Shown piece after piece: positions 1,836 through 28,091 of a stretch of 29,337 bases of DNA. The DNA lies in NCBI GenBank assembly GCA_043800705.1, contig JAZDMS010000012.1, positions 1 through 29,337 of the forward strand. Reading direction: 5' to 3'. The number at the start of each line of letters is the position of its first letter. Within the stretch, counting starts at the first letter, position 1. Origin of the DNA: Candidatus Altiarchaeota archaeon (GTDB taxonomy: Archaea; Altiarchaeota; Altiarchaeia; IMC4; SCGC-AAA252-I15). The translations under genes were made by a program, and so were the position numbers. The notes below the pieces were generated by a model. That model saw only the letters and a list, made by a program, of their open reading frames with translations, was not told the DNA's origin and did not search any database.

Positions 1836-3152
1836 ATGATTATGAGGTCATTCATCGAGGAACTTGACGAGAAAGGCAGACTGATACGGATAGACAAGGA
1901 GGTCGATCCGAAATTCGAGATTGCGTCAATCCTAAAAAGGCTGGACGGAAACGCGGTCTACTTCAGCAAGGTCAAAGGCTACAAGATGCCGATAGTCGGA
2001 GGCCTATGCAGCTCACGGGAACTCATATCAACGGGGCTGGGAACAACGCCTGACAAGCTGGTCATCAAGCTGGCAGACGCCATAGACCACCCGACGAAGC
2101 CTAAAACGGCAAAAACCGCCCCCTGTCAGGAAGTCGTCGAAGACGACGTCAGCAAAATACCCTTCCTAACCCATTACAGCAGGGACAAAACGCCATATAT
2201 CACATCCTCGGTAGTCATAGCAAAGGACCCCGAATACGGCCAGAACATGAGTATCCACAGGATAATGGTTATCGACCCGAAACATCTCATCATCCGAATA
2301 TGCGAGCGCGACCTCCACGAATACCTCAAGCGCGCAGGTGGAGAGCTGGATGTCGCGATAGCGATAGGCACAAGCATGTCCGTGCTCGTAGCCGAGGCTA
2401 TGAGGGTCCCGATAAAGCAGGACGAGCTCGAGATAGCGAACACACTGGACAAGGTAGAACTCGTCAGGGCAAAGACCGTCGACGTCGATGTCCCCGCCGA
2501 TGCGGAGATAATAATCGAAGGCAGGATAACGAAGAAAATGGGCGTCGAAGGCCCATTCGTCGAACTGACCGGCAAATACGACTCCATAGAACGCCAACAG
2601 CCGATAATCGACATCAAGAAGGTGACGCGTCGAAAGGATTCCATATATCAGGCGCTGGTCGGAGGATCGAACGAGCACAAGCTCCTCATGGGCCTTCCGA
2701 GGGAGCCGACCATCTACAACGAAGTCAAGAAGGTCTGCGACTGCAAGAACGTCTCAATCACGCCCGGGGGGGCAAGCTGGCTGCACGCCGTCGTCCAGAT
2801 ACGGAAAAAGAACGCCGACGACGGGAGAAAGGCAATCGATGCCGCATTCAAGGGCCACTCCAGCGTGAAGCACGTCTGGGTCGTGGACGACGACGTAGAC
2901 CCCTTTAACCCGCTGGATGTGGAATGGTCGATGGCAACCCGGTTCCAGGGTGGCAAGAATCTGGTCATGTTCGAGGACTCGAAGGGTTCGAGTATCGACC
3001 CCTCCTCGGAGTATCTTGAAGGCTGCGACAGGAAGAAGACCACGAAGATGGGCTTCGATTGCACAATCCCCTCAGACAGAAAACGTGAGGATTTCCTCAG
3101 GGTAGAAGCTCCGATGAAGATAGACCCGAAAAAATACGGGATCAATCTCTAA
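1836..3152 (+). CDS. ubiD: UbiD-family prFMN-dependent decarboxylase, probably trans-anhydromevalonate phosphate decarboxylase
   Basis: NMSIHR, VPADAEIIIEG, EGPFVE, VVDDDVDPFN..DVEW..ATRFQ, GSSIDPS and KMGFDCT motifs; AGGTGA RBS. Substrate is inferred from AcnX and mevalonate kinase nearby. Confidence 0.9.
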   Translation: MIMRSFIEELDEKGRLIRIDKEVDPKFEIASILKRLDGNAVYFSKVKGYKMPIVGGLCSSRELISTGLGTTPDKLVIKLADAIDHPTKPKTAKTAPCQEVVEDDVSKIPFLTHYSRDKTPYITSSVVIAKDPEYGQNMSIHRIMVIDPKHLIIRICERDLHEYLKRAGGELDVAIAIGTSMSVLVAEAMRVPIKQDELEIANTLDKVELVRAKTVDVDVPADAEIIIEGRITKKMGVEGPFVELTGKYDSIERQQPIIDIKKVTRRKDSIYQALVGGSNEHKLLMGLPREPTIYNEVKKVCDCKNVSITPGGASWLHAVVQIRKKNADDGRKAIDAAFKGHSSVKHVWVVDDDVDPFNPLDVEWSMATRFQGGKNLVMFEDSKGSSIDPSSEYLEGCDRKKTTKMGFDCTIPSDRKREDFLRVEAPMKIDPKKYGINL

Positions 3153-7895: not shown

Positions 7896-7976
7896 TATTG
7901 TCTCGCTCCATACGTATTGGTCGTTGGGAATAATATATCGAGCCCTTTTATATCGTCTTTTTGTATATCCTATATC

Positions 7977-9179
7977 ATGCAACTGACGAGGGATGAAGAG
8001 GCCGTCCTAAGCGGCTCGGCAGGCAATGCGGCCGCGAAGTCGATGAAGATCCTCGTCGCCTTGGGCGAGATTTACGGAGCTGAAAAACTGATTCCCATTT
8101 CGTCGGTGCAAATCGCAGGAGTATCCTTCGATAACCTCGGCGACGCAGGCCTCGAATACCTCGCCGAGCTGGCGAAGGACGGCCAGGTCAAGGTCACGAC
8201 CACCCTGAATCCCGCGGGGATGGACCTCATAGACTGGAAAAAGCTCGGCATCAGCCCCGAATTCGCGCAAAAGCAGCAGAAGGTCATCGAAGCCTTCGAC
8301 AGGATGGGCGTAATCACCTGCTGCACCTGCACGCCGTACCTGGTTGGCAACCTCCCCCACTTCGGGCAGCACATCGCATGGAGCGAATCCAGCGCCGTCA
8401 CATTCGTCAACTCGGTAATCGGCGCGAGGACGAACCGCGAAGGCGGCCCCTCCGCGATAGCCGCCGCGATGAACGGCAAGAGCCCGGAGTATGGTTTGCA
8501 CCTTGACAGGGAACGCAAACCGGATATCACATTCGAAGTCGAGGCCGATATTAAGACGCTCCCTGATTTCGGAGCCCTCGGGTACCTCATCGGAAAAAAA
8601 GCCGAAGGGAAGATACCTTACATACGAGGCATCGAGAGGGCGACGGTCGACCAGTTGAAGAGTTTCTCAGGGTCAGTGGTCACGTACGGTTCTAAGGCGC
8701 TGTTCCACATGGATGGGATAACGCCTGAGGCGAAGAGCCACAAGCCTCCGAAGGAGAAGGTCACAGTCGGCGCGAAGGACCTGGCCGAAGCGTACGCGGC
8801 CTTGAACGACCCGACAGGTCCCATAGACTTCGTTTCCTTGGGCTGTCCTCACGCATCCATAGACGAGATAAGGGAGATCGCGGAATACCTAAACGGAAAG
8901 AAGGTGAAGGAAGGCGTCGAACTGTGGGTGGCGACTGCGAGGCCGACGAAGATGCTGGCAGATGGCCGGGGGTATGTGAAGATTATCGAGGCTGCGGGGG
9001 GCAAGATGGCATGCGACACCTGCATGGTTGTGGCCCCCCTCAAAGGCAGGTTCAAGAACGTGGCGACGACGAGCGGAAAGGCGTGCTTCTACTGCAGGGG
9101 GAAGAACAAGATGCAGGTGAACCTGGGCACATTCCAACAGTGTCTCGACGCGGCCGTAACCGGCCGGTGGGGTGCGTGA
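7977..9179 (+). CDS. Aconitase X catalytic subunit, probably phosphomevalonate dehydratase large subunit
   Basis: TTLNPAG.D, CTCTPY, AWSESSAV...NSV.GARTNREGGPS, LGCPHAS, DTCMVV and T.SGK motifs; start moved to MQLTRDEE. Confidence 0.9.
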   Translation: MQLTRDEEAVLSGSAGNAAAKSMKILVALGEIYGAEKLIPISSVQIAGVSFDNLGDAGLEYLAELAKDGQVKVTTTLNPAGMDLIDWKKLGISPEFAQKQQKVIEAFDRMGVITCCTCTPYLVGNLPHFGQHIAWSESSAVTFVNSVIGARTNREGGPSAIAAAMNGKSPEYGLHLDRERKPDITFEVEADIKTLPDFGALGYLIGKKAEGKIPYIRGIERATVDQLKSFSGSVVTYGSKALFHMDGITPEAKSHKPPKEKVTVGAKDLAEAYAALNDPTGPIDFVSLGCPHASIDEIREIAEYLNGKKVKEGVELWVATARPTKMLADGRGYVKIIEAAGGKMACDTCMVVAPLKGRFKNVATTSGKACFYCRGKNKMQVNLGTFQQCLDAAVTGRWGA

Positions 9180-9752
9180 ATGGCTCAGCTCACCGCCGGC
9201 AACATCGGGAATACCTACAACAATGAGTATGTGTTGAGCGTCGATAGGGCCAAAAAGCGCGAAACACTCCTTCTGGCGGTCCCTTTCCTGGACCGGGTCG
9301 GGAAGGAGATGGCTGACAGGGGCTACGACGCCAAAGAGGCCGTCCCCCGCCTGATGACTGCGGCGCACGACCTCGTATTCGACGTGATCGAGTATTGCGA
9401 GCCAGCCAAGGAAGGCGGCATGCCGACAATTGTCATGAAGGCTTCTGTAGACGCGGATGTGGCGAGGATATATTTCGTCTGGAACCAGAGCATGGGCGTC
9501 GACCTCATGGCAATAGCAAAAAAGGAGAAAGAGGACCTCGATGCGCTGGTGGGCGAGGGGGCTCTAAGCGCCGAACTCGACGGTAGGGCGGATTACGGAG
9601 CGACGCGGAAGGCACAGGGACGCCTCGACGGCATGAGCATGGGACTTGCCCTAGTGGCCGGATTGGCAGACAGATTCGACGAGTTCTACGATCCGGTCAG
9701 AAAACTTAAAACTGTGACCTTGGCGGTCCGGAGGCTGAAGGATGGAGCTTAA
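9180..9752 (+). CDS. Hypothetical protein with a degenerate RsbW/SpoIIAB-like (GHKL) fold
   Basis: LMTAAHDLVFDVIEY resembles the N-box helix; GMSMGLALVAGLADRF...TVTL resembles the G2-box tail. Abuts or overlaps both AcnX genes. Confidence 0.5.
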   Translation: MAQLTAGNIGNTYNNEYVLSVDRAKKRETLLLAVPFLDRVGKEMADRGYDAKEAVPRLMTAAHDLVFDVIEYCEPAKEGGMPTIVMKASVDADVARIYFVWNQSMGVDLMAIAKKEKEDLDALVGEGALSAELDGRADYGATRKAQGRLDGMSMGLALVAGLADRFDEFYDPVRKLKTVTLAVRRLKDGA

Positions 9753-10125
9753 GGGCAGGATAATCAACAAAGGGACCGTCGAAGGCATAGCCTTAGTGAC
9801 GAAGGATCCCATCTCGTTCTACGGCGGAGTAGACCCAAAGACGGGCATAATCTCAGACAAGGACAATGAGCTCAACGGCCAGAGCATCAGGGGGAAGGTG
9901 CTCGTTTTCCCGTTCGGGAAGGGCTCCACAGTCGGCCCATACACCATCTACCAGCTGGCGAAGCTTGGCAACGCCCCTTTGGCGATGGTCAACAAAGAAT
10001 GCGAGACCATCGTCGCTGTGGGCTGCATCATCGCCGACATACCCGCGGTCGACCGGATAGACCTAACAAAGATCAAGACCGGGCAGAAGGTCAGAATAGA
10101 CGGGGAAAAGGTTTCTATTATATGA
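9742..10125 (+). CDS. Aconitase X swivel subunit (DUF126), probably phosphomevalonate dehydratase small subunit
   Basis: ISFYGGVDPKTG, GKVLVFP.GKGSTVG and E.IVAVG.II..IP motifs. Confidence 0.92.
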   Translation: MELKGRIINKGTVEGIALVTKDPISFYGGVDPKTGIISDKDNELNGQSIRGKVLVFPFGKGSTVGPYTIYQLAKLGNAPLAMVNKECETIVAVGCIIADIPAVDRIDLTKIKTGQKVRIDGEKVSII

Positions 10126-10982: not shown

Positions 10983-11915
10983 CTAAACCCCTATCTTGGT
11001 CCTGTAGGCCTCATATCCTTCCTTCTCGATGGCATTCGCGACCTTCTCCTGCAGGACTTTCCCGGGAGTGAGGGCGATCATGAGGCCTCCCCGTCCGGTG
11101 CCTGTAAGTTTCGCGCCGAGTGCGCCGTTTTCATTCGCCGCATCGACGAGTTCTTCGAGTTCGTCGCAGCTGAGGCCCATCTCCTGGAGCAGTTCGTGGT
11201 TCTTGTCCATGAGGTAGCCGACGGCTTTCATGTCGCCCTTAAGCAGTGACGCCTTGGCTGCGGCCGCTATCTCGGAGTAGTCTGAGAATATTTTGTCGTA
11301 TTTTTTTCTGTCAGCCTCTCTCGCATTTTTCACGTCCTCCACGACCTCCTTCGTCGATGACGTCAGTCCTGTGTTGCCGAGGACGATCTCGACGGGTTTC
11401 GGCATCCTGAGGAGGTCCATCGTGTTGGCGCCGCCGGAGAGGTTCTTCTGAAACCATATGAGGCCGCCGTATACGGCTGCCGTATTGTCTATGCCCGAGG
11501 GCTTGCCGTGGTATCCTTTCTCGCCTTCGTATGCGACCTCGTTGATCCTCGGCTCGTCGTAGCCGAGGCCGAAGTGCTCGTTCAATGCTCGGGCGATGGC
11601 AGCCGCGGAGGCTGCCGACGCTCCGACGCCGGATGCGGCCTTGAGGTCGCCTGCGAGCGTGACCTTGAGCGGGGTCTTTTCGATGTCGATGCCGCAGGCC
11701 TCGTATATGAGTTTGTTGGACTGCACCTGCTCGTCGTATTTCTCCTTCTTGTATCCTGGCGTGGCGGGCCTTTCGTCTACGAGCTCGTATTTGACGGAGT
11801 CCTCGACTGTGGCGGTGGTCTTGCTGGCGAGCGCGGACGCTATCGCAGGAAATCCGTAGACGACGAAGTGTTCCCCGAACAGTATGGTCTTCCCGTAGCC
11901 GATGCCTGATGACAT
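10983..11915 (-). CDS. mvk: Mevalonate kinase
   Basis: GKTILFGEHFVVYG, SGVGASAA, HGKPSGIDN and GAKLTGTGRGG GHMP-kinase motifs. Confidence 0.93.
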   Translation of the reverse strand: MSSGIGYGKTILFGEHFVVYGFPAIASALASKTTATVEDSVKYELVDERPATPGYKKEKYDEQVQSNKLIYEACGIDIEKTPLKVTLAGDLKAASGVGASAASAAAIARALNEHFGLGYDEPRINEVAYEGEKGYHGKPSGIDNTAAVYGGLIWFQKNLSGGANTMDLLRMPKPVEIVLGNTGLTSSTKEVVEDVKNAREADRKKYDKIFSDYSEIAAAAKASLLKGDMKAVGYLMDKNHELLQEMGLSCDELEELVDAANENGALGAKLTGTGRGGLMIALTPGKVLQEKVANAIEKEGYEAYRTKIGV

Positions 11916-12188: not shown

Positions 12189-13142
12189 TTAAATGGGGTG
12201 GGCCCCTTCTGCGACCTTGTAGTGGCGGTATTTGAGGTTGTTGTCTTTCAGTTCGCGGGTGACCTCCCGGCTGTATTGGTGGAGTGTGAAGACGTAGACT
12301 GCGCTTCCGCCTGCGACGGTCCAGTATGCGGGGATCTTCCTCTCCCTCATCCCGAGGACGAGGTTGATGGCCTCCCCCATCTGCGGCTTTATCACGTCCA
12401 TCCCCATCTCGCTGAACATGGTGTGGACGGTCCTGGCTTCGGCCTCTGCTATCTTCATGAAGCCCAGAAGGTCGTTGCCGTCGACGAAGCTTTGCAGGTT
12501 TCTCAGGCGTTCCTCGACCTGCTTGGTTCGCTTCGGATGGTCCTTGTGCCTCGTGACCATGAGGTGGAGGTTGTCTGCGGGGAAACGCTTCAGTTCAGGG
12601 AACGGTATCGCGTATATCATGAGGTCGTTGAAGAATGAGGCGTCCTTCACCTGGTGCGCCCTGATGTTGCCTTTGGCGTCGACTTCGCATATTGAAAGGC
12701 CTCCTATGAGGCTACGGTATGCGGTCTCGCTGACGGGTTTGGCGAGCTCTATGAGGCGCGTCATCGGCGAGCCGAGTTCGAGGAGGTCGTCGACGGCGGA
12801 AACGAGCGCCGCCGCGCCGGAATCGCTCGAGCCTGTTAGGATGTCGTGGTTGACGGACTGCACGGATGCTCCTGTTCGTTCCGCGGCGAGGGGCAGCATG
12901 TCCCTGATTATCTCGACGGCTGCCAATGCGCGACCTTCCGCCGGGGCTGCTCCGTTGAGGCTGAATGCGGGCTCCTCATCCGTGAGGGAGGCCGATGTCT
13001 CCGTCTTTGCGTTGTGGTGTATGTCGGTGACCGCGATGCTGGCGTGGTTGTGGGCCGATATCCGAAGCCGGGAATCCCTGAACCCTTCCGCGAACACGAT
13101 AGGCAGGCCCGGATAGGCCACCGCCTTGGCGTGCGCTTTCAT
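12189..13142 (-). CDS. Diphosphomevalonate decarboxylase superfamily member, mevalonate-3-kinase-like
   Basis: AYP start, ILTGSSDSGAAA, SETAYRSLIGGL, R.P.D..H and VAGGSAVYV resemble Thermoplasma mevalonate-3-kinase as I recall it; lacks the NIALIKYWGK and DAGPN motifs of true decarboxylases. Confidence 0.75.
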   Translation of the reverse strand: MKAHAKAVAYPGLPIVFAEGFRDSRLRISAHNHASIAVTDIHHNAKTETSASLTDEEPAFSLNGAAPAEGRALAAVEIIRDMLPLAAERTGASVQSVNHDILTGSSDSGAAALVSAVDDLLELGSPMTRLIELAKPVSETAYRSLIGGLSICEVDAKGNIRAHQVKDASFFNDLMIYAIPFPELKRFPADNLHLMVTRHKDHPKRTKQVEERLRNLQSFVDGNDLLGFMKIAEAEARTVHTMFSEMGMDVIKPQMGEAINLVLGMRERKIPAYWTVAGGSAVYVFTLHQYSREVTRELKDNNLKYRHYKVAEGAHPI

Positions 13143-21623: not shown

Positions 21624-22580
21624 TCACGCCAGTTCTGCCCCCCTATACTCTTCCATGTGGCTTTTGAACCAGGCTATCGTGCCCTCCAGTCCCTCATCCA
21701 GGCCGAGATTGGGGCTCCATCCGAGCGCTTTCTTCGCCTTTGTGTTGTCTGCGACCCAGCATTCCGTCTCGAATCCTGGAGTCGGCCTCCGTCCGAAGAG
21801 GAGCCTGGAATCCGGCCTGATGAGGCCGTGTATCCTCTTTGCGACCTCCTTGACCGAGTGCTGGCTGCCTGACCCAATGTTCAATACGCTCCCCCCTATC
21901 CTCTTGGCCTTCATCGCCTTGATGAACGCCTCGACGACGTCGTCGACGTGGATGAAGTCCCTCGTCTGGCCGCCTGAGGTGAGCTCGACGTCCCTGCCGG
22001 CGAGGCAGCCTGCGATCACCGTTGGCACGAGCCTCATCGGCTCCTCCCATGGGCCGTATGCGGAGAAGAGCCTGAGGGTCGCGATGGGTTTGCCTTCAGT
22101 AACCGCGGACGTCCTGCAGAACAGTGTGGCCGCCGCCTTCGTGACCCCGTACATGTTGACCGGCTCCAGGACGTCGTCTTCCGTCATGGGGTGGTCCTTT
22201 ATCCCGTATTCGGAGGAGCTGCCTGCGTTGATGAACGAGTCGTAGGAACGGTCGGCTGCGGCGTTCACCAGGTTAACCGTGCCGAGGAAGTTGGTGCCGA
22301 TCATCCTGGCCTGGTCCTTCTGCGTCCGGGGATAGCTCCCGTAGGCCGCAAGGTGCAGGATATGGTCTGGCTCGGCCTCGTCGATAATCATCTTCAGTGC
22401 CCTTGCCTCCCCGAGGTCGCTATCGTGCCTGATTATGTTGTTCAGGATGTCCCGTATCCTCCAGAGTGAGGTCTCCTTCCTGAGGATGGTGTGGACCTCG
22501 TATCCTTCGCCGATGAGCCTCCTTGCGAGGTTGGCTCCGACGAATCCGCCGGCTCCGGTGATAAGGACCCTCTTTACCAT
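21624..22580 (-). CDS. NAD-dependent epimerase/dehydratase (extended SDR)
   Basis: ITGAGGFVG, GSSSEYG, YGVTK and TRDFIHVDD motifs. Confidence 0.92.
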   Translation of the reverse strand: MVKRVLITGAGGFVGANLARRLIGEGYEVHTILRKETSLWRIRDILNNIIRHDSDLGEARALKMIIDEAEPDHILHLAAYGSYPRTQKDQARMIGTNFLGTVNLVNAAADRSYDSFINAGSSSEYGIKDHPMTEDDVLEPVNMYGVTKAAATLFCRTSAVTEGKPIATLRLFSAYGPWEEPMRLVPTVIAGCLAGRDVELTSGGQTRDFIHVDDVVEAFIKAMKAKRIGGSVLNIGSGSQHSVKEVAKRIHGLIRPDSRLLFGRRPTPGFETECWVADNTKAKKALGWSPNLGLDEGLEGTIAWFKSHMEEYRGAELA

Positions 22581-22669
22581 AATACTCAAAATAGTGGCTC
22601 ACCCCGTTAAATACGCACTTTTCCCGCGCTCTCTGGGCGCTTATCCCTCGCACTTTCCTATGCACTTAG

Positions 22670-24535
22670 GTGAAGTATTTCCCGTATTCCCGGGTAAGAG
22701 GAGGGCAGTCAGAGTTCCTGCAGGACTGCCATGAGGCCGTGGGAGCCGGGGCGGCTCTCGTAGCACATGCTCCCACCGGCATCGGCAAGACCGCCGCGGT
22801 CCTGTCGGCCGCGATCGAGCACGCGCTCAAGGAGCACAAGACAGTATTCTTCCTCACGCCGAAGCACACCCAGCATACCATCGCTGTCGACACGGTCAGG
22901 AGGATATCGGAGAAGCATAGTCTCCACCTCTGCCTCGTGGACATCATCGGCAAGCAGTGGATGTGCCCCCACAAGGTCCATGACCTGAGCTCGAGGGAGT
23001 TCAACGAGTTCTGTCGCACGCAGAAGAAGGACGAGCTGTGCGAATACTACAACAACACCCGCAAGGCCAAGACTACCGCGAAGGCGCAGGAGGCGATCAC
23101 GCGTATAATCGCCCGCCCGATGCACAACGAAGAGGTCCAGATGACATGCGCGCTCAACAAGCTATGCCCCTACGAGGTCCTTCTGGAGGCGGGCCGCAAG
23201 GCCGACGTCGTCGTATGCGACTATTTCCACATATTCAGCCCACCCGTTCGCAGAGCCTTCCTGAACAAGCTCGGCAAGACCGTGGAGGACTCGATACTAG
23301 TCGTCGACGAAGCCCACAACCTCCCCGACCGGATCCGCAGCATCATGAGCCACCGGATCGGGACATACTCCCTGGAGCGGGCTGCCAAGGAGGCCAGCAC
23401 CCTGAACTTCAGGCAGCTTTCGGAGGAGCTGATAGGGGTGTCGAAGTCCATGAAGAAGCTAGCAAGGAAGATAAAACCCTACCAGGAGAGGTACGTCGAC
23501 AAGCGCGAACTGGTCGACGAGGTCGTCAGCGTCTCGGGGATGGAATACAAGGAATTCGCAGCCGAGGTCGAAAGTCTCGGCGCGCAGGTGCTGAAGATCC
23601 CCGGCAGGTACCGCAGCCACGCGGCGAACATCGCCAGGTTCCTCGAGGAATGGGTCGGGGAGGACATGGGGTTCACGAGGATCATGAACAAGGACGAGCA
23701 CGTCAACATCGCGAGGAAATGCCTGGACCCCAGCCTGTCCTGTGCGGATGTTTTCTCCACAGCGCATTCGGCGATACTGATGAGCGGGACGCTGACCCCC
23801 TTGAACATGTACTCCAGCGTGCTGGGGCTGAAACCGGAGCGGACGATGGAGAGGGCCTACAGGTCGCCGTTCCCCAAGGAGAACAGGCTCACGCTCCTTG
23901 TCCCGGGGCTCACGACGAAGTTCGCTGAACGGACCCAGCACATGTACGACAAATACGTCTCCACAATCTCCTCGATGCTTACGACGATCCCGGGCAACGT
24001 CGCCGTATTCTTCCCCTCATACCATCTCCTAACCGACATCGGCCTCAGGGTGAGGACGAAGAAGGAGCTGGTCGTCGAGCGGCAGGAGATGACGAAAGAG
24101 GAGCGGCTGAAGCTGTTCCACCGCCTGGTCCAGCTTCAGGGGGCGGGCGGCGGGGCCCTCATGGCCGTCCAGGCGGGCAGCTTCTCGGAAGGCCTCGACT
24201 TCCCGGAAAACATGCTCGACGCCGTCATAATAGTCGGACTCCCCCTGGAGAGGCCTAATCTGGAGACCCAGGCATTGATCGACTACTACGACTTCAAGTT
24301 CGAGCGCGGCTGGGACTTCGGCTATATCTACCCTGCAATGAACCGTTCCCTGCAGGCCGCAGGCCGCTGCATAAGGAGCGAGACAGACCGGGGAGCCATA
24401 ATCCTCCTCGATGAGAGGTTCAAGTGGGGGAACTACAGGAAATGCTTCCCCTCTGATTTTGAGTTTATTGTGACAGAGACTCCTGAGAAGTATCTGAAGC
24501 GGTTCTTCGAAACATCAGGTATGTGCCACCTTTAG
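22670..24535 (+). CDS. xpd: XPD/Rad3/DinG family Fe-S DNA helicase
   Basis: APTGIGKT, Fe-S cysteines (CP...C...CEYY...CPYE), DEAHN, MSGTL, FFPSY, SEGLDF and QAAGRCIR motifs. Confidence 0.92.
   Translation: MKYFPYSRVRGGQSEFLQDCHEAVGAGAALVAHAPTGIGKTAAVLSAAIEHALKEHKTVFFLTPKHTQHTIAVDTVRRISEKHSLHLCLVDIIGKQWMCPHKVHDLSSREFNEFCRTQKKDELCEYYNNTRKAKTTAKAQEAITRIIARPMHNEEVQMTCALNKLCPYEVLLEAGRKADVVVCDYFHIFSPPVRRAFLNKLGKTVEDSILVVDEAHNLPDRIRSIMSHRIGTYSLERAAKEASTLNFRQLSEELIGVSKSMKKLARKIKPYQERYVDKRELVDEVVSVSGMEYKEFAAEVESLGAQVLKIPGRYRSHAANIARFLEEWVGEDMGFTRIMNKDEHVNIARKCLDPSLSCADVFSTAHSAILMSGTLTPLNMYSSVLGLKPERTMERAYRSPFPKENRLTLLVPGLTTKFAERTQHMYDKYVSTISSMLTTIPGNVAVFFPSYHLLTDIGLRVRTKKELVVERQEMTKEERLKLFHRLVQLQGAGGGALMAVQAGSFSEGLDFPENMLDAVIIVGLPLERPNLETQALIDYYDFKFERGWDFGYIYPAMNRSLQAAGRCIRSETDRGAIILLDERFKWGNYRKCFPSDFEFIVTETPEKYLKRFFETSGMCHL
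24427..24509 (+). repeat. xpd 3' end, in-gene copy of a 150-bp-offset duplication
   Basis: 67/83 nt identical to 24577-24659; 13 of 16 differences are synonymous. Confidence 0.92.
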
Positions 24536-25653: not shown

Positions 25654-27975
25654 ATGGTCAAATGCCTTCTGGACGCGGATTATGTGACTAAGGACGAGAA
25701 GCCCGTGATCCGGTTATTCTACAAGACCGAGGCCGGCCAGCTCATCGAGGAGGTCACGGGCTTCGAGCCATATTTCTATGCGCTTCCGAGGGCCGATATC
25801 GGCGCTTTGGAGGATTCCATGAAGGGGCTTGCAGGCGTAGTCCGCGTTGAGCGGCTCAGGCTCCTGGAGAAAGGCAAGGAAACCGACGTCTTGAAGGTAG
25901 TCCTCAGGCAGCCGAAGGACGTCCCCCAATTGAGGGATTCAGTCGCGAGGCTCCCCACGGCCGCAGGCTACAGGGAGGCCGACATACCGTTCGCACGCCG
26001 TTACATCATCGATTCTGGCATCGTCCCGATGGAGCATTCGGAGGGGGTGGAGCTGAACGTCGCAGCCGTCGACTGCGAGATCGCCGCCGACGGCGAGCCG
26101 GATGCGTCGCGCCATCCCCTATCGATGATAAGCTACGCAGACTCGAAGGGATTGAGGCGGGTGTGGACCTTCGAGCGGAAGAATCCCGGCCTCGACTACG
26201 TCGAGGTCGTCAAGGACGAGGCTGCGATGCTCAGGAAGCTCGTGGACACGGTGCGCGAGCAGGGGATAGACATACTCACCGGATACAACACCGACAACTT
26301 CGACTTCCCCTACTTCGAGGGGCGGGCCGCCAAGCTCAGGGTCGAGCTGGACTTCGGCTCCGACGGAAGCAGGCTTAGGATGGAACGCAGGGGGATGAAC
26401 AACGGGGCAAGGATCGTCGGCAGGCCTCATGTGGACATGTACCCCGTCTGCAGGCAGGTCTTCAACCTCCCCAGATACCAGCTCGAGGACGTCTACGCGA
26501 GCCTCTTCGGGGTCGAGAAGCTGGACATCAAGGTCAGCGAGATATCGGAGTTCTTCAACGGCACCGACCCGAAGAAGTTCGCGATACTCTGCGAGTACTC
26601 CCTCTCCGACGCGGACGCCACCCTCAAGATCGCGCTGAAGATGCTGCCCCTCATGTACGAGATGTCGAAGATCATCCGGCAGCCGCTGTATGAGACGTCG
26701 AGGATGCGAAGCGGCCAGCGTGTGGAGCACCTGCTCGTCGAGGAGGCCCACCGGCAGGGGGTCCTGGTCCCCAACCGCCCCTCGGAGGAGGAGTTCGACG
26801 AGCGGGAGGACGCACCCTACGAGGGGGCCTTCGTCGTAGACCCGAAGAAGGGGATACACGACAACATCGTACACTTCGACTTCACGAGCCTGTATCCGAG
26901 CATCGTCATATCCCACAACATCGACCCGACCACATTGGACTGCGAATGCTGCGAGGCATCCGCGCCGAAGGCCCCCAACGGCCACTGGTTCTGCACGAAC
27001 GCGAAGGGCTTCATACCGGAGGTCCTCGGGTGGCTTCTTCAGAAGAGGGCTGAGGTCAAGAACCGGATGACGGCCGAGGCGGACCCGGAGCGGAAGAAGA
27101 TTCTTGACGTTGAGCAGCAGGCGGTGAAGCTCCTTGCAAACAGCATGTACGGCTATTACGGCTTCCAGAGGGCCAGGTGGTACTGCAGGGAATGCGCGGA
27201 GGCAATCGCAGGCTGGGGGCGGGAATACATACAGGAGACGATCAAGGTGGCCACAGCCGAGGGTTTCGAGGTCATATACGGCGACACTGACAGCGTCTAC
27301 CTAACAAGGGACGACCTCAAGGACACGAAGGAGATCATAAGGCGGGCGATGGAGTTCCAGAAAAAGATAAACGACAGGCTGCCTGAGGCGATGGAGCTGA
27401 AGTATGAGGACTTCTACCTCAGGGGGATATTCATCACGAAGAAGAGGTACGCTGTCATAAACCAGCAGGGGAAGATGACGGTCCGCGGGCTTGAAACGCG
27501 CAGGAGGGACTGGTGCGAGGCCGCGAAAGGCACCCAGCAGAAGGTATTGGACGCGCTTCTGAAGGACCGGGACCCCGAGAAGGCCGCGAACGTCGTCAAG
27601 GAGATGGTGCAGCGGATAAAAGCCGGCAACGTCCCGCTCTCGGAGCTGGCGATCAACACGCAGATGACCCGAAACCTGGGGGGATACGTAACAGAGGGCC
27701 CGCATGTGGCGGCTGTGCGCAGGGCGATGAAGGAGGGGGTGGACTTCAAGCAGGGCGACATCATCACCTACATCGTCACGAAGAAGGGGGGCTCAAGCGG
27801 GAACATCGGCGAGAAGGCCGTCATCATCGACCATGTGAAGGAGGGGGACTACGACGCAGACTACTATATCAACAACCAGGTCCTGCCCGCGGTCATGAGG
27901 ATCCTCGAGGCCTTAGGCTACCAGGAGGACGAGATGAAAGGCAAAGGGAAACAGATGACTTTAGGTGACTGGTAG
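25654..27975 (+). CDS. polB: Archaeal family B DNA polymerase
   Basis: LDADY N-terminus, ExoI DCE, GYNTDNFD, DFTSLYPS, KLLANSMYGY, YGDTDS, KKRY, YYINNQVLPA and C-terminal PIP-like QMTLGDW; start moved to ATG 25654. Confidence 0.96.
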   Translation: MVKCLLDADYVTKDEKPVIRLFYKTEAGQLIEEVTGFEPYFYALPRADIGALEDSMKGLAGVVRVERLRLLEKGKETDVLKVVLRQPKDVPQLRDSVARLPTAAGYREADIPFARRYIIDSGIVPMEHSEGVELNVAAVDCEIAADGEPDASRHPLSMISYADSKGLRRVWTFERKNPGLDYVEVVKDEAAMLRKLVDTVREQGIDILTGYNTDNFDFPYFEGRAAKLRVELDFGSDGSRLRMERRGMNNGARIVGRPHVDMYPVCRQVFNLPRYQLEDVYASLFGVEKLDIKVSEISEFFNGTDPKKFAILCEYSLSDADATLKIALKMLPLMYEMSKIIRQPLYETSRMRSGQRVEHLLVEEAHRQGVLVPNRPSEEEFDEREDAPYEGAFVVDPKKGIHDNIVHFDFTSLYPSIVISHNIDPTTLDCECCEASAPKAPNGHWFCTNAKGFIPEVLGWLLQKRAEVKNRMTAEADPERKKILDVEQQAVKLLANSMYGYYGFQRARWYCRECAEAIAGWGREYIQETIKVATAEGFEVIYGDTDSVYLTRDDLKDTKEIIRRAMEFQKKINDRLPEAMELKYEDFYLRGIFITKKRYAVINQQGKMTVRGLETRRRDWCEAAKGTQQKVLDALLKDRDPEKAANVVKEMVQRIKAGNVPLSELAINTQMTRNLGGYVTEGPHVAAVRRAMKEGVDFKQGDIITYIVTKKGGSSGNIGEKAVIIDHVKEGDYDADYYINNQVLPAVMRILEALGYQEDEMKGKGKQMTLGDW

Positions 27976-27981
27976 TTTTTT
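27976..27981 (+). terminator. Oligo-T archaeal terminator candidate after polB
   Basis: TTTTTT immediately after the TAG stop codon. Confidence 0.45.
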
Positions 27982-27990
27982 CTAGTGCAT

Positions 27991-28043
27991 GAGGGGTCTA
28001 AGACCCCTCGATTCGCTGCGCGTGTGCACGGAGCGAGCCATGC
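27991..28043 (+). repeat. Structured interspersed element, copy 2 (9-bp inverted repeat + 31-bp conserved motif)
   Basis: GAGGGGTCT-A-AGACCCCTC, GAT, then TCGCTGCGCGTGTGCACGGAGCGAGCCATGC. Confidence 0.85.
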
Positions 28044-28091
28044 GATGATGTGTAGGGTAACGGCAAGCAGATGACTCTTGGGGATTGGTAG
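28044..28091 (+). pseudogene. Displaced second copy of the polB C-terminal coding segment
   Basis: Reads DDV*GNGKQMTLGDW*, versus DEMKGKGKQMTLGDW* in the gene; 28056-28091 matches 27940-27975 at 28/36 nt, mostly synonymous changes. Confidence 0.8.

Follow-up and report, generated by a model that had tools for sequence, protein, structure and literature searches.

Why does the family B DNA polymerase gene (polB) of a Candidatus Altiarchaeota archaeon end twice? In the stretch of DNA analysed here, 29,337 nucleotides of contig JAZDMS010000012.1 (assembly GCA_043800705.1; hereafter the window), the last 48 nt of polB (27928-27975) are followed, after a spacer of 68 nt, by a second version of the same sequence (28044-28091). 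The spacer contains a two-hairpin module of about 60 bases (27985-28043), and the stem of its second hairpin ends at 28043, the base before the downstream copy. A second copy of the module lies in the window behind the xpd/Rad3 helicase gene, and the module recurs, as an apparently undescribed family, in several archaeal phyla, where it sits at the ends of dozens of essential genes unrelated to one another. We conclude that the polB and xpd structures are very probably integration scars with a surrogate gene end, and that the best explanation overall, to which we assign a probability of roughly 0.52, is the scar of a tiny, enzyme-less mobile element that carried a captured gene end.

The two polB copies share 35 of 48 nt (73%), with no identical run longer than 9 nt, and translate as DEMKGKGKQMTLGDW* within the gene and as DDV*GNGKQMTLGDW* downstream. 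An earlier note on this DNA had reported the duplicated tail at a spacing of 116 bp, and both copies are present as it quoted them; a recount over its 36 nt returned the same 8 nucleotide changes and 10 of 11 identical residues, and the in-frame TAG that it saw in the downstream copy lies at 28053-28055. Over the full repeat, the 13 changes fall at 10 third, 3 first and 0 second codon positions, a distribution that departs from a duplicate-then-decay model (p=0.018). The downstream copy had been taken for a displaced and decaying one. Displacement is likely from the gene order, because in a relative (G001) this copy abuts the FKBP gene, as does the single polB end in the insert-free genome G003, so that the downstream copy probably holds the ancestral position. 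Decay, however, explains few of the 13 changes; the only features that resemble later decay are the TAG and a mismatched pair in the stem of hairpin 2. The in-gene copy was also said to use uncommon AAA and TTA codons; AAA is indeed scarce (8 of 56 Lys codons in polB) and clustered, three consecutive ones lying in this copy, but TTA is undiagnostic, occurring six times in the gene, once only six codons upstream of the repeat. Codon adaptation to the host is 0.47 for the in-gene and 0.44 for the downstream copy, which places them at the 4th and 3rd percentile of random 16-codon windows.

The duplicated tail carries a predicted PCNA-binding motif (PIP box). It aligns with QVGLGAW of the Thermococcales PolB C-terminus, a stretch that we take to be the archaeal PolB PIP box, and a C-terminal Q..[LIM]..[WF] motif is present in 32/32 polB orthologs, which bears out the earlier identification. 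The event is nevertheless not special to clamp binding: xpd, trpE, ligase, tRNAs and 5S rRNA also have ends duplicated by this module. Keeping the PIP box would be a requirement for any viable insertion at the polB end, and the polB/PIP-box angle is by itself ordinary.

In general, a short spacer, hairpin 1, a linker and hairpin 2 follow the first copy in that order, and the downstream copy starts 0-6 nt after hairpin 2. At polB the folding energy of positions 27976-28050 corresponds to a z of -3.3, and the 22-nt core shared by the two module copies in the window is identical between them (0 expected by chance). Pairing is conserved across the family rather than sequence. In 88 non-redundant loci the outer two pairs of hairpin 2, positions that the search pattern left free, are Watson-Crick in 173 of 176 cells and comprise 9 different fully paired combinations, while shuffles gave a mean of 71 and a maximum of 91 of 176 and the next pair outward is random. 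Hairpin-1 stems contain, on the strand shown, 15 G-T versus 1 A-C mismatch, drawn from about 12 distinct stems, plus 36 other mismatches; this bias suggests that the strand shown is the folding strand. Mini-hairpin loops had no clear strand bias (17 versus 24 in the strict form), an Rfam scan gave no match of note for the module, and no internal guide complementary to the target was found within it.

At xpd, the two copies differ by 13 synonymous and 2 non-synonymous codon changes. The xpd frame is also seen to continue into the module and to stop in the hairpin-1 loop (24533-24535), which gives the protein a new 8-residue tail, ETSGMCHL (24510-24535).

Across the family, 78 loci have enough flank, and in 39 of them the stretch behind hairpin 2 is also present upstream, starting between -3 and +6; the same detector applied to shifted pseudo-junctions returned an anchored duplicate 5 times in 374 tries. 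In two of the 39, what is repeated in tandem is the unit itself. The duplicates have periods of 84-673 nt and lengths of about 12-130 nt, half of them 25 nt or less. Targets include tRNA 5' and 3' ends, 5S rRNA, and the ends of trpE, DNA ligase and other housekeeping genes, with target names besides polB, xpd, dapF and FKBP recognised by eye from translations; trpE was struck at one site in three genomes. Relative to polB, xpd and trpE the module is in sense orientation, relative to ligase and most tRNAs in antisense, and relative to tRNA-Cys in locus L086 again in sense. These orientation classes rest on examples, as automatic tRNA-end classification placed only 4 of 88 loci, one of them wrongly. 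Occurrence both sense and antisense to host genes points to insertion at the DNA level.

The paired copies differ as alleles do. Among 26 hand-picked coding pairs (16 of the two-hairpin module family and 10 with other spacers) the codon differences number 129 synonymous and 37 non-synonymous, and the changes are distributed over third, first and second codon positions as 138, 42 and 15 (15/195 second-position changes versus about 27% expected, p 2e-11; two of the pairs, with 4 changes, were misframed, and corrected frames give 136/43/16). From the few second-position changes we infer that each copy had a history as a working gene before the two came together, most simply in separate lineages, and the pairs are therefore likely diverged alleles rather than decayed target-site duplications. 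In 13 further pairs of the 26, identity is unbroken over at most 8-15 nt, and runs of this size are short for RecA-type recombination.

A positional preference was found close to the hairpin. Of 58 target clusters, about 35 have A at +6 after hairpin 2 and about 1 has C; looser clustering gives A in 23/40 (p about 1e-5). The triplet AAC occupies +6 to +8 in 8/58 clusters, as compared with about 1 at other positions, and identity between copies rises from 0.78-0.92 at 0 to +5 to 0.95-1.0 at +6 to +10.

Among relatives, only 2 of 32 polB orthologs, in this genome (G000) and in G001, have the duplicate, 29 of the 32 having at least 250 nt downstream, and polB is empty in the three other genomes of the same genus. 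The combination named earlier as telling against the link between element and duplication, a duplicate without the element, was not found among the orthologs; every polB duplicate has a module. At the same polB base as in G000, G001 carries another variant of the module, whose second hairpin is enlarged and again closes at the junction; the two G001 copies are more alike than either is to those of G000. The two inserts are thus likely independent insertions. In G005, xpd is duplicated at a different junction from that in G000. Features of the polB and xpd regions are listed in Table 1.

Table 1. Positions of features at the polB and xpd ends within the window.
Start	End	Strand	Feature	Remarks
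24427	24509	+	xpd/Rad3 helicase end, in-gene copy	A+T-shifted codons; codon adaptation 0.54
24520	24573	+	Second copy of the two-hairpin module	22-nt core identical
24577	24667	+	Displaced, host-like xpd end with its own stop	Codon adaptation 0.86
25654	27975	+	polB, family B DNA polymerase, 773 aa	Pfam DNA_pol_B 3e-84 and exo1; ortholog length used to infer the start codon
27928	27975	+	Last 16 codons of polB, in-gene copy (DEMKGKGKQMTLGDW*)	Likely surrogate end delivered by the element
27952	27972	+	PIP-box-like motif QMTLGDW, working polB copy	Alignment to Thermococcales PolB C-terminus; 32/32 orthologs; predicted binding
27976	27990	+	T-run, then conserved module start GTGCAT (27985-27990)	
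27991	28009	+	Hairpin 1, 8-bp stem, 3-nt loop	Fold; stem sequence variable across copies, pairing kept
28010	28025	+	Conserved linker (TCGC..CGCGTGT)	
28026	28043	+	Hairpin 2, 6-bp stem, AGCGAG loop, one C-A mismatch	Outer-pair covariation; ends exactly at junction
28044	28091	+	Displaced polB end (DDV*GNGKQMTLGDW*)	TAG at 28053-28055
28140	29138	-	FKBP-type peptidyl-prolyl isomerase gene, convergent	Ancestral polB neighbour; adjoins polB in G001 and G003

How might such a small element move? The travelling form would be a circle consisting of the module and a captured gene end that follows hairpin 2, folded as single-stranded DNA, probably of the strand shown. The circle would be integrated at the matching gene end of a new host by an enzyme acting in trans, perhaps delivered on a transient replicon and most likely a tyrosine recombinase that works on folded single strands; a single crossover would fall no more than about 10 nt from hairpin 2, A at +6 being weakly preferred. 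The element's copy would become the working gene end and the host end would be pushed downstream; only insertions that rebuild a working end, at polB including the PIP box, would survive. New targets could be gained when excision picks up DNA downstream of hairpin 2. We give this particular route, a folded single-stranded circle with a recombinase in trans and one crossover, about an even chance. As a tentative extension, which we think possible and rather doubtful, the module and captured gene end may form a retargetable insertion system in which the captured sequence is both DNA address and repair patch. Changing the 15-100 nt after hairpin 2 would then change the landing site, and a trans-acting integrase, if the captured sequence is its address a candidate programmable one, would keep exchanging the ends of essential genes between lineages, the polymerase's PCNA-binding tail among them. 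The scars themselves imply a steady exchange of protein termini between lineages, and they account for the spurious tRNA fragments and odd C-termini of such genomes.

Family searches in five carrier genomes returned Cas1 (1), resolvase (1), DNA_primase_S (one copy each) and Phage_integrase (3/5 and 4/5). RVT_1 was found in 0/5, as was Y1_Tnp, genomes of 87-92% completeness making this absence no proof; Y2_Tnp and RepB_primase also had 0 matches in the five, but their positive controls likewise went undetected. TnpB was not found in the five genomes nor Cas1 in G000, and no enzyme is shared by the flanks of the module copies. Contig C17 of G000 encodes a XerA/IntI-like recombinase (L118:175-993) that lacks the IntI insert, being about 45 aa shorter than IntI4 in the insert region and below the TIGR02249 cut-off. 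Of 49 genomes of the order, 23 encode relatives of it, with cassette-like DNA upstream; the close ones are often found 200-900 nt away from the end of a contig and have a shared TAAC..TTA site and hairpin-rich DNA upstream. It could not be linked to the module: a clear module copy occurs at 1 of 42 recombinase loci (L231, at a shared tRNA).

Gene-end duplication by integration has known precedents. In Escherichia coli, the prophage e14 at icd/icdC leaves a working end and a displaced copy on either side of the insert, with mainly synonymous differences (PMC13626634), and archaeal integrative elements target tRNA genes (PMC9897764, PMC8371274). The structures described here are alike in that the copies flank the insert with mainly synonymous differences and in that tRNA ends are favoured, and the gene-end repeat restores the reading frame. 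These known elements, though, measure 9-23 kb and bring their own integrase, whereas the inserts here measure about 70-600 bp and carry no enzyme; the 68-nt polB spacer holds no integrase gene. They also differ in that one end module serves dozens of unrelated targets in both orientations, from tRNA ends and 5S rRNA to polB, xpd, trpE, ligase and others, rather than one target or a narrow class per family. The apparently new part is that a single module, carrying no enzyme, recurs at many such surrogate ends.

A second likeness is to integron cassettes and their attC sites, in which structure is kept over sequence, folding is strand-biased and the enzyme can act in trans (PMC9668308, PMC4792948). 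Some mid-size copies hold one promoterless-looking, A+T-rich gene, as cassettes do, and the weak AAC enrichment at +6 to +8 is of the same kind. The module differs in having neither an attC-like long fold nor paired R boxes, as judged from alignments and folds against the attC consensus, and the one XerA/IntI-like recombinase of the genome lacks the additional IntI domain and is not beside a module. Insertion at attC is not known to duplicate the target. REP/BIME sequences with RAYT, IS200/IS605 derivatives and miniature inverted-repeat transposable elements (MITEs) are small non-autonomous hairpin repeats, sometimes tandemly amplified, but they are not known to make a long, allele-like copy of the target. 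The Y1 HUH transposase of IS200/IS605 and REP-RAYT systems is among the families missing from the carrier genomes. In place of the terminal inverted repeats and short, fixed, identical duplication of a MITE or transposon, the duplicates here are allele-like and 12-130 nt long, and the differences between copies are not A-specific, as they would be in a diversity-generating retroelement.

Relaxed archaeal recombinases exist: IntpTN3 of Thermococcus is a tyrosine recombinase that recombines homologous DNA with low sequence specificity (PMC5495485). Its activity is described in that source on segments of at least 104 bp, whereas identity here is often below 20 nt and is tied to the end of a hairpin. 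The priming site ssiA of plasmid RSF1010, compared by description, shares a hairpin followed by a GTG triplet and loops of mini-hairpin type (PMC8567376, PMC13037366). Spacing differs, and a second hairpin and the target junction follow here; by analogy, the likeness is a lead.

Several points count against an enzyme-less mobile element. No enzyme linked to the module was found in the carrier genomes, which are incomplete, and no circle, empty allele or excision joint was seen in the contigs of one shallow run. The other 39 of the 78 loci have no detectable duplicate within 750 nt. The G-T bias of hairpin 1 fits folding of RNA as well as of DNA, detection bias contributes to the identity peak at +6 to +10, and related copies are not independent. 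The polB case itself lacks this identical block, with 5 mismatches in the first 12 nt after hairpin 2 and G rather than A at +6 of the downstream copy. Because of these early mismatches, the G, and the equally atypical codon usage of both copies, the polB crossover and the donor copy cannot be fixed. A codon-usage comparison, an approach proposed earlier for locating the crossover, found both copies atypical to about the same degree.

Other origins for the scars were weighed against this one. They could be remnants of larger integrative elements, viruses or plasmids with a tyrosine integrase of their own and a surrogate end, whose middles were deleted to leave attL, one arm and attR. Synonymously altered surrogate ends have been described for e14 (PMC13626634), integrases are present at tRNA 3' ends in these genomes, a truncated integrase-like frame (judged by eye) follows tRNA-Gln on contig C30 of G000, some 400-670 bp inserts hold an A+T-rich gene, and several loci stop near an upstream contig break. 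However, among the 88 non-redundant loci, with flanks up to 6-10 kb, no large element was found to end in the module. IMG/VR contains no match to the strict core, the matches of looser patterns look like chance among those listed, and the target range goes far beyond the switching reviewed for archaeal integrases, which concerns tRNA classes only (PMC8371274). We regard this origin as unlikely. The module could instead be the origin or end signal of a rolling-circle element, HUH or primase-driven, whose circles, with downstream host DNA, are inserted by host RadA without a site-specific recombinase. This would accommodate the variable duplicate length (12-130 nt) at conserved targets and the tandem unit copies in L078, L090 and L146, and the hairpin followed by GTG recalls the RepB' priming site ssiA (PMC8567376). 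It is nonetheless quite unlikely given that half of the duplicates are 25 nt or shorter, with identical runs often of 8-15 nt, and that the base preference at +6 is positional; the Y1 transposase is missing from 5 genomes, Y2 and RepB' were not found there either (with controls likewise undetected), and the hairpin lies about 12 nt from the GTG here versus 3 nt in ssiA.

A device kept by the host, either a recombination-switched alternative C-terminus or a structured RNA controlling convergent genes, is suggested by the two window targets, both DNA-metabolism genes with convergent neighbours, by the structured module and by downstream copies that are often in frame. It becomes very improbable when the module is found at polB in only 2 of 32 genomes, in different variants, with a stop in the spare polB copy, no Rfam match and targets of every functional kind. 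Staggered cutting by a transposase or casposase would leave copies that are identical at first and then drift, the downstream one decaying. The identical trpE pair in L065 (48/48) and the stop codon of the downstream polB copy agree with such an origin; the deficit of second-position changes largely refutes it for coding targets, and tenfold length variation, the lack of terminal inverted repeats, and the missing Cas1 (G000) and TnpB (5 carrier genomes) make it hardly credible. The genome is a metagenome assembly and the copies are allele-like, so that alleles of two strains might have been joined by the assembler. A 151-nt contig piece from run X1 (depth 2), which may stem from the source sample, matches 27901-28051 without differences. 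Support for the junction, on which the earlier note made its case depend, is thus full on the left and extends 8 nt across the right. With a structured 68-nt spacer between the copies and the same layout in dozens of independent assemblies, an artefact is scarcely conceivable.

The module was matched in 13 of 20 genomes of the same family. Its exact core pattern occurs at 65 GTDB loci, 64 of them in 28 genomes titled archaeal (hand count), namely Altiarchaeota, Thermoplasmatota, Nanoarchaeota/Woesearchaeota, Iainarchaeum, Methanosarcinales or unnamed archaea; in the single bacterial match the stem is broken. A further 38 loci were found in metagenomes. Looser and second-family patterns gave 2, 9 and 1 matches in viral contigs, chance-like among the matches listed, and PLSDB returned weak matches only (best E 0.1 among the matches listed), nearly all inside tniB. 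Loci L067, L116 and L117 were excluded as chance matches before counting, and structural descriptors proved too narrow when strict (3 matches) and too wide when loose (1628 matches). In the literature searched, outside which lay most subscription papers and all supplements, no paper describing the module was found. One Thermoplasmatota genome (L051, L064, L066, L069, L085, L087, L108, L109) has the module within mosaic repeats of 200-400 nt, mostly without a target copy.

Four inserts of 400-670 bp contain an A+T-rich frame on the other strand, with its start next to the module. In L100 and L111, an inverted hairpin-1-like unit lies at the insert's other end, 400-640 nt upstream of the module, such that two units face outward around one A+T-rich frame. 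Behind tRNA-Gln on contig C30 of G000 (L232:590-5700), about six copies of the tRNA 3' end over 5 kb separate single A+T-rich genes and toxin-antitoxin-like pairs, and the truncated integrase-like frame of this array lies beside tRNA-Gln. In a spacer family at C15:52010, C22:34106, C23:4162 and C35:49899 of G000, a copy of a tRNA 3' end appears, by eye, to pair with a later complement to form a long imperfect hairpin that includes the target, as attC-like substrates do.

Many further gene-end duplications with other hairpin spacers are present in G000, where 50 rows passed the filter, many by chance. Judged by eye, contigs C14, C18, C19, C25, C26, C33 and C37 carry duplications with other spacer families at argG, RNase Z, ABCE1, a GH57 protein, pheS and glutaredoxin. 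One other spacer family follows the same plan, with a hairpin, a CTTCG linker and a terminal hairpin against the copy. A same-strand fragment lies within 1.5 kb of 21 of 34 ARAGORN tRNA calls in G000, a count taken with no control and including some doubtful calls. A genome-wide repeat scan at the protein level was swamped by simple repeats. Long degenerate repeats with a 7-base period occur at C1:243-480 and 22184-23108 and at C12:76829. Elsewhere in the window, the genes at 1836-3152, 7917-10125, 10983-11915 and 12189-13142 look, by eye, like those for UbiD decarboxylase, the large and small subunits of aconitase X, mevalonate kinase and a GHMP-type decarboxylase, which suggests a modified archaeal mevalonate pathway.

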